Source of the DNA: a virus
Taxonomy: Duplodnaviria > Heunggongvirae > Uroviricota > Caudoviricetes
Strand: one strand, 5' to 3'
IMG/VR virus record: IMGVR_UViG_2537562189_000005
Length of the DNA stretch: 23,143 nt
Position numbers: made by a program. Below, piece after piece: positions 3,001 to 9,000 of this stretch; position 1 is the stretch's first letter, and every line of letters starts with the position of its first letter.

Positions 3001-6000
3001 CTCAGTAACTCCGAATTAGCCGCGGTGAACTCCTCACAGACGTTCCGAAGTGCATCTACATCCAGAAGAACCATCTCCTGACCTGAACGTCGATCAGGGG
3101 TACAAAATAAAACTGTCAGACGACTGAAGACCTTTGTTCGTTCCACATTGACGGCTTCAATACGCTGTAACAGTTGGCTACATCTGATTTTCTCATCAAT
3201 ATTCACGCAAACACCAAATGATTATAACTCTTTATGCTGAACACATTCAGACTATATCTAATACAGTCAATCAATATATGCCTGATGAAAAAACATCAGA
3301 TAACGTCTGCTTTCTGCAAATATGCATAGCTCTCAGGTGGTGCACCATAATACTGGTGAAATACAGAAATGAAATAGGACTTACTTGAGTAACCACATTT
3401 TTCCGCTATCGCTTGTCCACACTCTCGCTGGAAACATACAAGATTAACAGCAACACGCATTCGCTCCTCCAGCAACAACCGACTAAAGCTATAACCTTCA
3501 TCCTTAAGTTTTCGCTTCAACAAGCTTTCGCTCATATGCAATTGTAATGCAATCACACCTAGCATCCAGCCTGCCGATATGTCGGTCTGAATTATAGCCC
3601 TTACTTTACAGCTGATATTATTTACAGCACCGGACAAAAATAATGGCAGACGCCTGTCTGTTGCAAATAAGGAGATACATGAAAATGCGGTTATAACAGA
3701 GAAATCCTTCAAAGTATCACTGGATTCACTATGCTGGGTTATTAAAGCCTCCGCCAGTTCCGTATTGTAAATATCAGACATCAAATAAAGAGGCATTTTT
3801 GTCGGTGTATACTCCGTCAGTTCACACTCCCTTTCCAGATACTGATTGACGACGCTGTTACTTATATCTGCCATTTTCACTCTGTCGGCATAAGCACAGA
3901 AAAGCCCTCTTATATTTCTGGCAACAAGCATAACACTTCCGGCATCGAGTGAAACTTTTTCTTTTTCAAGAAAAATATCTATCGGATAGCGAATCAGGAC
4001 CACAGAGCAGGCAACATCCATTTTGAATTAACCTGAGCAAAAAGACTTAATACCAGTATATTCCAAAAATGGCATTTTGGGAGATTACTTCTGCAAACCG
4101 CTCCCGCTAAATACATCCCTGATTTCCTGCGCAGTCTGTTCAAAACGCCCGGTATCCAGCTCAACGCCAGTTGCACGACGCCCCAGCGCCATCGCGGCTT
4201 TGACTGTCGAACCCGACCCCATGAAAAAATCTGCAACCAGGTCACCCGGACGACTGCTCGCGCTGATTATCTGCTGCAGCATTTCTGCCGGTTTTTCGCA
4301 CGGATGTTTCCCGGGATAGTACTGCACCGGTTTATGCGTCCACACATCCGTGTACGGCACCTGCGCCGTCACGCCAAAATACCGCCGCAGATGCTTATAT
4401 TCACTCTGCAGTTCCGCATACTGCCGGTTCAGTGAAGTATACGTCTCCAGCAGCTGGTGGTGGGGCTTTTCCAGTTCACCCCGCTGATGCTTCTCTTCTG
4501 CCACCCGGGCAAACAGCGCCTGTAATTTCAGATAATCACTTTCGTCCGGCAGTTGCCACTGACTGGCACTAAACCAGTGCGACACCATGTTTTTCTTTCC
4601 TGTGGCATCCACAATCTGTTTTGCCGTTATCCCCAGGGCAGCGCGCGCATCACGAAAGTAAGCAATCAGCGGTGCCATCACATGCTGTTTCAGTGCCCTG
4701 CCCTTCGCCTCATACCCGGCATCTTTCGGACGATACGGCCCCTGATAATGTTCCGCGAACAGAATGCGCTCTGTGGCGGGGAAATACGCCCGCAGGCTTT
4801 CCTTGTTGCACCCGTTCCAGCGTCCGGACGGCTTCGCCCAGATAATATGGTTCAGCACACTGAAGCGTTCACGCATCATGATTTCAATGTCAGATGCCAG
4901 GCGATGGCCACAGAACAGGTAAAGACTTCCGGCAGGTTTCAGCACCCGCCAGAACTGCGCAAGACACTGGTCCAGCCACTTCAGGTAATCATCGTCGCCC
5001 TTCCACTGGTTATCCCAGCCCTCAGGCTTCACTTTAAAGTACGGCGGGTCCGTGACTATCAGGTCAACAGAATTTTCGGGTAACGACCGGATAAATTCCA
5101 GGCAGTCGGCGTTGATTAACTCACAACTGGATATTTTTACAGTGTTAAGCATGGATCATTAAGCCTGTCTCTGATAGGCTCATTCTTCTTTTGCGCAAAG
5201 CAGTGGGCCTGAGGTTTGCTTGTGATCCAGACGCATGAGCAGATGGCTGGTGAGTGCCCCTAACACCCACCAGCCGCCCATTTACCACAAATAAAAAAGC
5301 CTTCATGACTGAAGGCGTCTGTAACAACCGAACTGATAGTCTGCCAGACCCGCCATAACAAGCTGGGTCAGTATTAACTGGCAGCGTTCGCGTGAAAGGT
5401 AAGTATTCTGCGCAATCTCCCCGACTGTCGCCGGTTCGGTGACGCTTAATTCATTAAACACCACTCTGGCGGTTTCGGTCATATCCTGCTGTTTCAGCAT
5501 GTCTTTTTCCCTTTTCAGGTTAACGTGACATACCAATAACTCTTGTCGAAAAAGCCAGCAAGCTGAAAGACCCGTATTCGCAACCACCAGCGCGTTTAAC
5601 GCCCTGTGTCGTTTTTCGGGCATAAAAAAACCCGCCAGTGGCGGGGATCTTTTGATAAAAACGACAAAGGCACCATTAAGGTGCCTTTTACACAGGGGCA
5701 GCAGGCTTGTCATCACCTTATTGCTACTCCTGGCTTCCAGTTCGGAAGTCTCACAAGTCCCATCAGGGTACAGCGACAGTATCAGTCAACACACTATGTG
5801 TGTCAATATAAATTCATATCGAATTCGATAATCGTTTTCGATTATCGATACAGATAAGCCATCCCTATCCCGTGCAATACCGCCCGTTTAATATTCTCAA
5901 ACTCATCTTCCGCAATCATAGGAACAATATAATTTCGCCCCTCCCAGGTTCTAGTTTTTATGCGATCCAGTCGGCTCAATGAAACCGTCATCAACATGTC

Positions 6001-9000
6001 ACATTTTACCCAACAAGTAATATGCTCATTACCAGGGATGGGGTTTTCTGATAACTCATGATGGCAATCTCTGCGAGGAATCGGTTCAGTAGTGCTTATT
6101 GGTACCACTGTTACCAATTGATTGTTGTGTCTGTTTCTGGACACGACTACCACTGGCCTGACCTTGACTATTTCCGGAACAACCATTCCCCGAAAATCAC
6201 ACATTAAAACAGAACGAACAGACGGCTGATACTTTAACACCATAAATCTCTTTGCCTGATAATGACGACTTGTGAACTCCACTACAAACAAAATGATTCT
6301 GCTGAACAGGCAGTTTCGCACTGTACATTATAACCTGTTAAGCCAACAAAAAAACCCGCTCGGCGGCGGGGTTTGCTTACTTTGCCATCGCGTACAAAAT
6401 CGGCAAAATATCAGATTTACATGAAATATATGCTTTTTAATCCAGTTTTGCAATATTTTGCTGTGAAAATGTGGTCTTTTGTTTTGAACGTGTTTTCGTT
6501 AAAAGCAATAAAGCTTGGCTATCAAGCTGTAGAAAAATGTGCTTCATTGCAACCCAGCGTTCAGTAAATGTCTCAGACCAGTTTTTTGATGTCACTCCCA
6601 CCAGTGATGCCAGATCCCGGTATTCATAACCTTCCCCACCAAAAAGCTCAGCTTTTACCGCTTGCGCCGCCAGCCAGATCAACTTCTTCAGACGTTCCAG
6701 CGTTTTCCCAGCTATTTTTCTGGTACCGGATTGAGTATTAAATTCATTCCACGCCCACTGCGTTATCGCAATCTGATACTCCCAGCAAATGTTTCCGCCG
6801 TAACACCACAACAACCACGCCTTCTGATGCGCTTCCAGTTCCAGAACTGCACGTCGCCATGATGATGTCGAAAACTCAACCGGACTGACCAGAGCAATTG
6901 ACGTCCCTTTCGCCAGTGATTGTTTACCCGGGATCGGTGGGTTATCCCGCGTGATCATTTTTCCGGTTACCTCATCGCGGTAACGAATTTTTTTGCGTCT
7001 GTAACGCCCTGTATCGAACAGTGCATTTTCCTGCCAGGCTTCCAGTTGGCCTTTTATCGACACACTGAGATCCGCAGTGGCAATCATGAGTTGCTCACGA
7101 ACAAACTGTAAATACTGGTTATTCATGCACACCCACCTCTGTAATTCTTATCTCCAGCCGTCCACCAGATACTGGCTGGCCACGTACAATATTGATTTCA
7201 TCAAACTGCTCATCGTCCATTAACAACCCTGCATGCGTCAGCGCATCCAGCGGCGCTTTCAGGATATTATCCAGGTCACGGCGGCGCTTATCCGGTGGCT
7301 CTGCAATCACCTTTATCGCCAGCCTTCCGGACAGGCTTAATTTCAGCCGCTGCTGGCGAACAATAAGCGCCACTGCCCGGCGATAGCGCTTTCCCTCCTC
7401 AGATATAAAATATGTGCTGCCACGACGTCGCCAGTAAGTATTCACCGTCGGTGGATAAGGCAAAACAAACTCTATACGCATCAGTAACCTCTTTTACCCA
7501 AGCACGCCGGTTGCAAAGGCGTGATCAAGAAAACGAAAAATTAACTCAACCTGAGAGCCGTACTTTTTCTCAAACTCCAGCGGGTCTGCATGAAGTTCGT
7601 TGTGATGTTCCCGGCACAACGGTAGCGTGAAAATATCGTGGGCCTTTGTCCCCATTCCCCCCTGACCATGACCAATCAGGTGATGCGGATCGTCAGCAGG
7701 CTTACCACAACACGCACACGGCTGTGTCTTTACCCAGCGCGTGTATTTCTCATTAACCCAACGGCGACGTTTAGGCCGCTTCATGAACGATTCAGGAGAC
7801 TCCGGATCAACAGCGATACTGACAACCGTTTTTTTCTGTGGTGGATTTTGTTGCTGGTGGACGTGAAGTGGCAGCGCAATATTTTTTGTGCGCTGCTTCA
7901 GTATGCTGATGGCTGTCTGTTCTCCCGGTACGATGTCACTCTCACGGTATACGGAGCGGATTTTTTCCGCTGGTAATCCCAGCGAACGACGCGCTACTGC
8001 CTCAGGTAATGCATCCACCACCTGATTGCAGGCCGCCCACCAGGATAATTCGGCCAGCGATAATTCACGCTCCTGTGTGCCATTCATTGCGTGACGAATG
8101 ACGTCAATCATCCATGCTGACAGGTTTTGGTGAGCAAGTTGCTCAAGTGATTCGGAGGTCTGGTCACGCAACTGGTTGTCGCAGTGCCAGCACAACACCA
8201 TTGCGCCGGTACCATAACGGTGAATGACGGTTTCACTGTGGTGATAATCGCCGTGTGGCCACTGGCAGGATTTAACATGGCGCAGTAACCAGTCAGACAA
8301 TGCGCCAGCGCCACCAGCAGCACGAATCACTCGTTCGTCGCTGAAAAATGGCAGTAATGATTTATCCTCCGCCAGCGGCTGGCGAACGGCAGGAACGACC
8401 CCGGACGGCAGATTACGCATGCTTTTCGGTTCCGGCTCCACCAGTACCCGGGTATTGTGGAATACCGGCATGGATTCACGGCCCGGCTTAACGATCACCA
8501 GCCCGAGTTCCGGTACCAGAACAGGTCGAAGTAATACCCGCACGTTACCTCCAGATGCGTTGCTGGAATGTGCGGGACGGACGCGGTGGGCGTTCAGAGT
8601 AAGGAAGCCTGACGGAGATTATCCAGTGACGGTAGTCGAGGCTAAGGGCTTTTTTAACCTCGTATCCGCGCCTGCGGTAACACTGAATGAGCCATTCGGC
8701 CTGTTCTTCAGTGCATGGGGGATGCTGGTACCAGTCAGATTTGAATGCGTGAAAACACCGTCTGCGCCTGCTGGCAAAGACGGCTGAATTATCAGAATTG
8801 TGTAATTTGGTATCGTGCGCCATCGGTTGTCTCTGCTGGCGCAGCAGGTGCCAGTTGTTCAGGCTGGTGTGCGAATTGTAAACCAGAATGCTAGGAAAAA
8901 ACAAAACCCGCCGAAGCGGGTTAAGTGCGGGTGCGTTGAGGATGCCTGACACATCAGAGGTGGCGAGGGATTCTCCCCATAAGCGCTAACTTAAGGGTTG

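Follow-up and report, generated by a model that had tools for sequence, protein, structure and literature searches.

A MazF/PemK-fold toxin gene and a conserved structured RNA, its candidate antitoxin, form an inserted cassette behind the Q gene of a lambdoid prophage

MazF and PemK are textbook toxins of type II toxin-antitoxin systems, and their 'orphan' copies are mostly written off as relics or as annotation noise. MazF enzymes recognize short single-stranded motifs, which is ACA in the case of Escherichia coli MazF, and the catalytic pair of MazF comprises R29 and T52. Type III systems (ToxIN, CptIN, TenpIN, and AbiQ/antiQ), which are found on mobile elements, pair an endoribonuclease-type toxin with a tightly linked, conserved non-coding RNA; this RNA forms a tandem-repeat array upstream of the toxin gene and shares one promoter with it through a leaky terminator. 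Phage PhiTE reportedly possesses an escape RNA, pseudo-ToxI, which is said to have been described by Blower et al. in 2012. Type I systems with a trans-encoded small RNA (sRNA), such as tisB/istR-1 and hok/sok, depend on a separately promoted and terminated RNA that is complementary to the untranslated region (UTR) of an mRNA for a small hydrophobic peptide. Finally, lambdoid phages carry morons in the interval between the antiterminator gene Q and the lysis genes, as exemplified by stx and by isrK-orf45-anrP of Gifsy-1. Here, we describe a locus that can be compared with each of these systems. It lies in a lambdoid prophage that takes up the whole stretch of DNA analyzed (hereafter, the window; 23,143 nucleotides; IMG/VR record IMGVR_UViG_2537562189_000005) and comprises a gene for a MazF/PemK-fold protein and, just downstream, a conserved structured RNA that is, on balance, probably the antitoxin of this protein.

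The protein shares with the MazF/PemK/Kid type II toxins its fold, a match to the Pfam family PF02452 above the cut-off, and equivalents of residues E24, R29, and T52. It differs from them, however, in its large sequence divergence and in its partner: no MazE/PemI/Kis-type protein antitoxin is encoded upstream or nearby, and the conserved partner is an RNA. The tight linkage of an endoribonuclease-type toxin to a conserved non-coding RNA, together with the presence on mobile elements, is common to this locus and to type III systems, and phage-borne copies of the RNA alone (see below) recall the pseudo-ToxI of PhiTE. In contrast to type III loci, the RNA possesses a promoter of its own, and the toxin is a PF02452 protein rather than a member of the ToxN, CptN, TenpN, or AbiQ families. 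As in type I systems, the RNA is separately promoted and terminated and exhibits, in several lineages, 9-12 nt of complementarity to the UTR of the toxin gene; however, the putative toxin is a soluble nuclease-fold protein of 133 amino acids (aa) instead of a small hydrophobic peptide, the complementarity is not universal, and the RNA is structured beyond antisense needs. The position after Q and a terminated leader and before methylase, tRNA, and lysis genes is that of the lambdoid morons, as are the organization into an autonomous promoter-gene-terminator unit and the homology breakpoints at the ends of this unit, but the cargo is a toxin-RNA pair rather than a virulence factor or an antirepressor. 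The yifN gene of E. coli K-12 likewise bears a PemK-superfamily label and is followed by a truncated copy of the RNA; in contrast to the gene in the window, it is an interrupted pseudogene, and its RNA remnant is devoid of helices P4 and P5.

Comparison of the flanks of the toxin gene in E. coli, Enterobacter, Xenorhabdus, and Pseudomonas reveals a conserved non-coding stretch just 3' of the toxin open reading frame (ORF), and two short exact motifs of this stretch recur on the same strand, just 3' of the ORF, in 81 of 93 loci. When 33 representatives (<88% identity) are aligned with MAFFT, without fitting to any model, compensatory double changes are found in 15 of the 20 base pairs predicted by RNAalifold. 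A covariance model of the RNA, which comprises five helices, finds one strong match per locus (53-106 bits), directly 3' of the toxin ORF, in 66 of 69 sources, i.e., the window together with genome, E. coli-record, and metagenome loci; the E-values of this model are rough (shortened calibration). The 66 matched sources span Alpha-, Beta-, and Gammaproteobacteria, Geobacter, and metagenome-assembled genomes, and the three misses are a contig end, Alysiella, and the yifN pseudogene of K-12. The sole match in the 23-kb window, at 5772-5656 on the minus strand, scores 96.2 bits (E 5e-21). In the model-fitted alignment, which leans towards the model, 92.6% of the cells are paired, and double changes occur in 21 of 26 pairs; neither value is attained in any of 500 shuffles, and sliding the 3' partners by 1-3 columns lowers the pairing to 36-61%. 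The covariation in the unfitted alignment is independent of the model. Moreover, the minimum-free-energy fold of the window copy contains the same helices (z = -4.3).

From 5' to 3', the RNA is composed of a P1 hairpin, a junction with the sequence CUUGUGAGAC, a variable P3 hairpin, a P4 stem that encloses P5, and a terminator hairpin that is followed by a conserved tail (UUUGUCGUUUUU / UUUGUCnUUUCU). In particular, columns A60, A63, C64, A65, and A66 in the P5 loop are invariant in the alignment of the 33 representatives, and the 3-bp stem that carries the loop covaries. Rfam 15 yields nothing over 5656-5771 at gathering thresholds or at E <= 10, and nothing at E <= 1 over the copies of the RNA from Pseudomonas, Brevundimonas, Caulobacter, Neisseria, Pasteurellaceae, and Geobacter. 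A literature search, which extended to the RNA sequence strings and whose coverage was partial (few subscription journals), found no account of the toxin subfamily or of the associated RNA. The RNA, and hence an architecture in which a MazF-fold toxin is joined to a single-copy, downstream, self-promoted structured RNA, appears to be undescribed.

Several other interpretations of the RNA were considered and discarded. By eye, it bears a likeness to a hammerhead core or to domain IV of signal recognition particle RNA; neither was matched in Rfam. A peptide translated from the AUG in GAUGACAA is not supported, as about a dozen loci have AUA, ACG, or AUU instead and the frame that follows lacks conservation. 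In two loci (L049 and L069), a pseudoknot between CUUGU in the junction and ACAAG in the loop is disrupted, and no compensating change is present. The loop could also pair with the 3' tail (GACAAG/UUUGUC), but the variation at these positions is not consistently compensatory. In many genomes, the Prokaryotic Genome Annotation Pipeline (PGAP) places a 65-aa 'hypothetical protein' over the RNA gene and the terminators, e.g., at 3321-3518 of the locus from E. coli 2012EL-2448 (L002); this ORF, whose start falls in the GUGAUGACAA loop, is probably spurious.

As predicted from sequence, the RNA is an independent gene that possesses its own near-consensus sigma-70 promoter and its own terminator. 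A sigma-70 promoter is located at a fixed distance from the invariant 5' G of the RNA, which corresponds to +1 at G5771 in the window, in 33 of 33 representatives. The -35 consensus, TTG(a/c)(a/c)A at positions -35 to -30 (T, T, and G in 27, 24, and 24 of the 33), is separated by 17 nt from the -10 consensus, nATAnT at positions -12 to -7 (A-11 in all 33, A-9 in 30, and T-7 in 28). Where the RNA abuts the toxin stop codon, as in Caulobacteraceae and the Pseudomonas putida group, the RNA promoter lies inside the last codons of the toxin gene.

An earlier note on this DNA had named the protein MazF/PemK-like from its hallmark motifs and had proposed a profile search and structure prediction as checks, and all of these bear the assignment out. 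PF02452 (PemK_toxin) is matched with 52.6 bits (E 6.1e-14; curated cut-off 23.1); it is the only Pfam family that matches the ORF and is present in all 111 database relatives. Among phage families, the best-matching is phrog_15698, whose function is unknown (E 1e-47), followed more weakly by phrog_1936, 'MazF-like growth inhibitor' (E 6e-10), and the ORF falls below the cut-off of the NCBIfam MazF equivalog (14 bits vs 120). An AlphaFold2 model built on 28 relatives (predicted local distance difference test score, pLDDT, 91.7; predicted template-modeling score, pTM, 0.86) exhibits an SH3-like barrel of the MazF/CcdB type. With this model, Foldseek retrieves 79 PDB chains at E <= 0.001, the best 50 listed all being MazF-family toxins, and template-modeling scores normalized to target length are 0.66-0.82 against MazF of Staphylococcus aureus, Bacillus cereus, Bacillus subtilis, Mycobacterium tuberculosis, and E. 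coli. PDB sequence searches with the protein and even with a family profile found no solved MazF, and only the fold search succeeded; thus, the protein belongs to a divergent subfamily. In an hhalign alignment to E. coli MazF (probability 67%, E 5e-5), E24, R29, and S50 of the protein fall on E24, R29, and T52 of MazF, and these three residues are among 15 positions invariant in 28 diverse relatives. The motifs are R29-PVVVVS, VTVVPISTT at residues 44-52, and VKCD at 79-82. Each of the 24 E. coli genomes with the gene has an intact ORF (97.5-100% identity). The protein is, therefore, a real member of the MazF/PemK fold that has kept catalytic-equivalent residues, and endoribonuclease activity is predicted for it. 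It is of a known kind and has been annotated before, PGAP naming the identical WP_071525566.1 of E. coli 2013C-3181 a 'type II toxin-antitoxin system PemK/MazF family toxin', and the Joint Genome Institute labeling many relatives 'YifN (PemK superfamily)'; its function as a toxin is presumed.

The linkage of the RNA to the toxin gene was followed in the best 80 loci of 538 species-representative genomes that encode a toxin relative and in the best 80 of 123 such phage contigs. In the latter, the covariance model detects the RNA next to the toxin in 70 of 74 loci (57 at E < 1e-5); the weaker matches belong to the most divergent toxins, and in a few of these the RNA lies upstream. Among 5426 complete E. 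coli genomes, 24 contain the toxin, each of them with the RNA beside it, and 13 more possess the RNA only, which makes 37 with the RNA. In one RNA-only type (strain S19-651), a clean deletion extends from the toxin 5' UTR to just before the -10 element of the RNA, and in another (strain E9), the RNA follows a different Q. Moreover, 16 of the 36 usable phage contigs that were found by a sequence pattern for the RNA only are without the toxin, and in these the RNA is located after Q genes or in tail modules. Thus, the toxin is never alone in E. coli and the RNA often is, as would be expected of a protein that does harm in the absence of the RNA.

Toxin relatives with 65-79% identity directly follow Q genes in Enterobacter and Xenorhabdus prophages, although these Q proteins belong to other families (PF03589 and PF06530), and in a Mu-like prophage a relative follows Mor/gp27. 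Such a distribution after three unrelated Q families and Mor indicates an association with the late-operon 'moron' slot rather than with this particular Q. The toxin-RNA pair is also common in chromosomal, non-phage contexts; in Pseudomonas, for example, the toxin relative is chromosomal and stands alone, with no Q. In K-12, the disrupted yifN, which carries an N-terminal insertion, aligns to toxin residues 1-52 at 29% identity, and the RNA remnant behind it (2404-2457, minus strand, of locus L094 from MG1655; 18.4 bits, E 9e-4) retains P1, the junction, one hairpin (the terminator), and the tail UUUGCCAU.

Copies of the RNA without the toxin occur in further settings. Three IMG/VR contigs (L208, L211, and L212) carry RNA-only copies with their own promoter in the tail/baseplate block, beside variable cargo ORFs; thus, the RNA behaves as a mobile unit on its own. 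In E. coli A34 (NZ_CP028741.1; locus L098, 1067-2774), no MazF-like gene adjoins the RNA (93 bits), which is located between a ParD/ParE pair and, at its other flank, a Panacea-domain gene with an unannotated ORF; a degenerate second copy of the 3' half of the RNA lies approx. 150 nt upstream. Other small RNAs are found close to the complete module: a C4 antisense RNA approx. 370 nt downstream in P. putida (L048, 3457-3543; 78.9 bits) and sRNA-Xcc1 approx. 120 nt downstream in a Pasteurellaceae genome (L023, 3131-3219; 68.3 bits). These neighbors fit a location of the module in mobile elements in P. putida and Pasteurellaceae as well.

In the mechanism proposed here, the RNA would act as an antitoxin to the MazF/PemK-fold endoribonuclease in two modes that do not exclude each other. 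In the first, which is type III-like, the RNA would bind the nuclease directly, its ACAA-containing loop serving as a pseudo-substrate; in the second, which is type I-like, the same hairpin would pair with a box in the toxin 5' UTR. The direct mode is suggested by the invariant ACAA loop, which recalls the motifs recognized by MazF, and the conservation of RNA structure and sequence across phyla exceeds the needs of an antisense regulator. As to the antisense mode, the 5' UTR of Enterobacter/Klebsiella-type loci starts with a box homologous to that in the window, AUUGUCAUCACC, which is perfectly complementary to the P5 hairpin sequence GGUGAUGACAA (-20 to -24 kcal/mol). In Neisseria loci, GGCGAUGACA pairs with UGUCAUCGUC (-20.5 kcal/mol), and a compensatory change from U-A to C-G has occurred between the two molecules; a few further loci also show strong, conserved pairing. 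A universal antisense mechanism was rejected because there is no overall UTR-RNA signal across 70 loci; the antisense component may be restricted to certain lineages or may lie outside the region scanned. In the lysogen, the RNA would remain in excess owing to the strength of its promoter and the weakness of that of the toxin, and induction would allow Q-modified RNA polymerase to transcribe across both genes. Their role would likely be addiction and/or exclusion of other phages, to which RNA-only phages would be immune.

We lean towards the reading that the RNA is the antitoxin of the MazF-fold toxin and that the two genes constitute a moron. It is a more tentative proposal that they represent an unrecognized class of toxin-antitoxin or defense system, in which a MazF-fold ribonuclease is checked by an RNA through type III-like sequestration at ACAA and type I-like UTR pairing, and RNA-only phages carry a decoy. 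Several observations weigh against the antitoxin reading. The RNA is a single copy of approx. 114 nt that lies downstream of the toxin, whereas type III RNAs are tandem-repeat arrays located upstream (no tandem repeats were found in 5500-6500). In the window, the pairing between the UTR box and the RNA is weak (-12 kcal/mol, two G-U wobbles), and over the 70 loci the mean z of the complementarity is -0.23, with z < -2 in 9 only. The toxin's own promoter in the window consists of a -10 hexamer only. PADLOC has no model for the protein and reports no defense-system match, and the leaning of the fitted RNA alignment counts on the same side. The presence of the RNA alone in tail modules and beside unrelated toxin-antitoxin genes indicates that it may have a function independent of the toxin. 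Finally, we infer all of the following: toxicity of the protein, neutralization by the RNA, its mode, read-through from Q, and the biological role.

Some of the same observations would be explained if the RNA and the MazF-fold protein were true partners of another kind: the protein might be a dedicated processing or binding factor of the RNA in a ribonucleoprotein, or the RNA might be a regulatory sRNA that has its targets elsewhere and the nuclease as an accessory. The RNA is more elaborate than an antisense seed requires, with junction and loop nucleotides invariant across phyla; it persists alone, conserved features intact, in many phages; and its antisense signal to the toxin UTR is lineage-restricted. 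However, a partnership of this kind does not account for the asymmetry between a protein never found without the RNA and an RNA often found without the protein, as expected of a protein that is harmful alone rather than of an RNA that requires the protein, nor for the invariance of the MazF catalytic-equivalent residues or the behavior of the module as a mobile moron in many unrelated elements. We therefore regard it as rather unlikely, and the antitoxin reading is retained in what follows.

The features of the locus are collected in Table 1. On the minus strand, the gene order in the window is DUF968, RusA, Q, the cassette, a 65-aa winged-helix gene, and a DNA methylase; in a near-identical prophage, lysis genes lie further on (Q, cassette, helix-turn-helix gene, methylase ... 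holin). The prophage of E. coli 2013C-3181 is 99.8% identical to the window over 4134-18500, cassette included. Approx. 1800 E. coli genomes share the 3' end of Q, and their homology to the window ends at 6346-6349, the last T of the terminator of a short leader that follows Q; homology to the backbones of phiP27 and Stx phages resumes at 5645. From these breakpoints, at approx. 6346 and 5645, it follows that the approx. 700 bp between them are an inserted unit, which sits directly after the leader terminator.

Table 1. Features of the toxin-RNA cassette and its surroundings (window coordinates)
Feature	Position	Strand	Details and basis
Q antiterminator gene (context, outside the cassette)	6437..7132	minus	Pfam PF06323, E 6e-90; PGAP 'bacteriophage antitermination protein Q'
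Promoter-like TTGCAA-17-TATATT over the end of Q, candidate late promoter (pR'-like)	6425..6453	minus	consensus scan
Short leader ending in an intrinsic terminator	6348..6421	minus	stem 6370-6355, T-run to 6348; terminator scan
Inserted two-gene cassette (moron), toxin and RNA genes	5646..6346	minus	homology breakpoints at both ends
Perfect -10 hexamer TATAAT without a good -35, possible toxin promoter	6327..6332	minus	direct reading; weak
Toxin 5'-UTR box GUCAUUAUC	6258..6266	minus	complementary, with two G-U pairs, to RNA GGUGAUGAC (RNAduplex)
MazF/PemK-fold toxin gene, YifN-like subfamily	5842..6243	minus	133 aa
Nested palindromes/hairpin over the toxin stop codon, just upstream of the RNA promoter	5818..5848	minus	repeat search
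RNA gene promoter	5778..5806	minus	-35 TTGACA 5806-5801, 17-nt spacer, -10 GATACT 5783-5778; scan, 10/12 matches
Conserved structured small RNA, approx. 114 nt	5656..5771	minus	covariance model; 70 nt downstream of toxin
P5 loop GAUGACAA, 8 nt, on the 3-bp P5 stem	5707..5714	minus	ACAA invariant across phyla
RNA terminator hairpin, conserved tail through 5656	5666..5688	minus	terminator scan; helix covaries
Second intrinsic terminator, phage backbone	5624..5645	minus	terminator scan; in block shared with phiP27 and Stx phages

The leader resembles a described arrangement in Gifsy-1, whose AntQ is 63.6% identical to the Q of the window (a PDB sequence search found no structurally characterized equivalent of the latter). 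In Gifsy-1, the 77-nt IsrK RNA is encoded directly after antQ, has its own promoter, and ends in a Rho-independent terminator that allows partial transcription read-through (PMC4825925). In the window, the leader gives sub-threshold matches to the isrJ and isrK covariance models, and the promoter-like site upstream of it is conserved together with the 3' end of Q in other prophages. By analogy with isrK (PMC4825925), this site is a candidate late promoter, and the leader may be the positional equivalent of IsrK or of the pR'-tR' leader.

This arrangement bears on the proposal of the earlier note that the gene encodes a solitary toxin without an antitoxin, which is silenced by the terminator after Q and expressed upon Q-mediated antitermination, coupling the toxin to lytic induction. 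The proposal is partly supported. The terminator scan and the leader comparison confirm that the leader after Q is closed by a strong intrinsic terminator and that the gene is located shortly downstream of it; the Enterobacter and Xenorhabdus relatives, too, are situated between a Q gene, of another type, and holin; and read-through of Q-modified polymerase into the cassette, as expected from the layout, is plausible. The view that no antitoxin is recognizable holds for proteins but overlooked the conserved RNA gene running from 5771 to 5656, which accompanies the toxin and is kept by toxin-deleted variants. The gap between Q and the toxin had been given as 70 nt filled by a terminator only; it is in fact 193 nt (Q stop codon at 6437-6439 to the ATG at 6243), with the terminator in the first approx. 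90 nt and a TATAAT box (6332-6327) and the 5' UTR in the remainder. Thus, the cassette has a -10 element of its own, relatives possess a homologous promoter region, and hundreds of chromosomal relatives without Q must be tolerated in some other way. Silencing by termination only does not agree with the RNA partner, the Q-less copies, and these promoter-like elements, and a solitary, Q-gated toxin is improbable.

The toxin promoter itself is less clear-cut than that of the RNA. The TATAAT box was not picked up by a two-hexamer promoter scan. In the window, TGGAGT stands where Enterobacter has the toxin-proximal promoter TAAAAT; with this element decayed, the upstream TATAAT is the sole candidate, and it is kept in toxin-deleted variants, where it would drive the RNA. 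At the other end of the gene, nested perfect palindromes had been noticed earlier, and they are indeed present: an inverted repeat with perfect 10-nt arms (5825-5834 and 5839-5848) extends across the stop codon and overlaps a 12-nt palindrome, ATCGAATTCGAT. Only the E. coli version has this sequence; in other genera, the hairpin is a different one or is absent. In an IMG/VR contig (L106), the hairpin loop corresponding to 5835-5838 is inverted (AAAA vs TTTT) with the arms unchanged, which is typical of palindrome-mediated loop inversion.

A further possibility is that a protein antitoxin is encoded elsewhere, e.g., by the 65-aa winged-helix gene at 5303-5500 or by a chromosomal MazE-type gene acting in trans. 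Other toxin families are known to include cases in which the antitoxin gene is in reversed order or distant, and the 65-aa protein (phrog_331) has weak winged-helix matches (TrmB, E 0.0024, below the cut-off). However, this gene, which the earlier note had singled out for an antitoxin search, is phage backbone: it is present in the toxin-less phiP27 and Stx phages and absent beside the toxin in Enterobacter, Xenorhabdus, and Pseudomonas. No protein antitoxin ORF was recognized near the toxin in the window, no antitoxin gene is called beside the relatives in these three genera, and when all small ORFs from -400 to +450 nt are compared over 23 diverse loci, no flanking ORF recurs from genus to genus, the only shared ones being 'shadow' ORFs inside the toxin coding sequence or the RNA. 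The earlier statement that no small ORF precedes the toxin stands in the sense that none is conserved; a 43-aa ORF at 6328-6197 does overlap the toxin start. It lies in another frame and was rejected as an antitoxin since it has no counterpart in other genera; its ATG falls inside the TATAAT box. A remote protein antitoxin is, therefore, very doubtful. That the toxin gene is an inert relic beside an unrelated phage sRNA, as the pseudogene state of its distant relative yifN in K-12 might suggest, is already disfavored and hardly credible given an ORF intact in 24 of 24 E. coli carriers, 15 invariant positions over 28 diverse relatives, and an adjacency from Caulobacter to Neisseria to Geobacter that chance cannot give.

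Other elements of the prophage were observed in passing. The classical type I antitoxin RNA sok (117 bits) is encoded beside hokD at 10488-10663 on the minus strand, in the same prophage region, and the antisense RNA DicF (75.8 bits) is at 18556-18607 on the plus strand. Positions 1965-4133 of the window have no counterpart in the otherwise matching prophage of E. coli 2013C-3181. This stretch contains two tandem copies of the sRNA STnc100 on the minus strand (2189-2378 and 2442-2638; 141 and 121 bits, gathering score 47) and a 241-aa ORF at 3296-4021 that is AraC-like by eye. In 2013C-3181, the methylase gene is followed by tRNA genes for Ile, Arg, and Arg; ARAGORN finds no tRNA in the whole window.

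The toxin gene is widespread in Proteobacteria and their temperate phages, being encoded by 538 species genomes and 123 phage contigs, and a whole MazF/PemK subfamily appears to have swapped its protein antitoxin for a conserved structured RNA. For genome annotation, the comparison flags an RNA gene that is unannotated and at times hidden under a spurious PGAP 'hypothetical protein'. Should the RNA prove to be the antitoxin, the largest superfamily of nuclease toxins would be added to the range of RNA-antitoxin systems, and the cassette would provide a compact, experimentally tractable module of approx. 700 bp. The tolerance of hundreds of 'solitary' PemK genes would then be explained, and the RNA-only copies in phages would be candidate anti-defense decoys. 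Moreover, with the cassette in a Q-controlled slot, the one that related phages use for stx, induction of the prophage would be tied to a burst of toxin and RNA alike.

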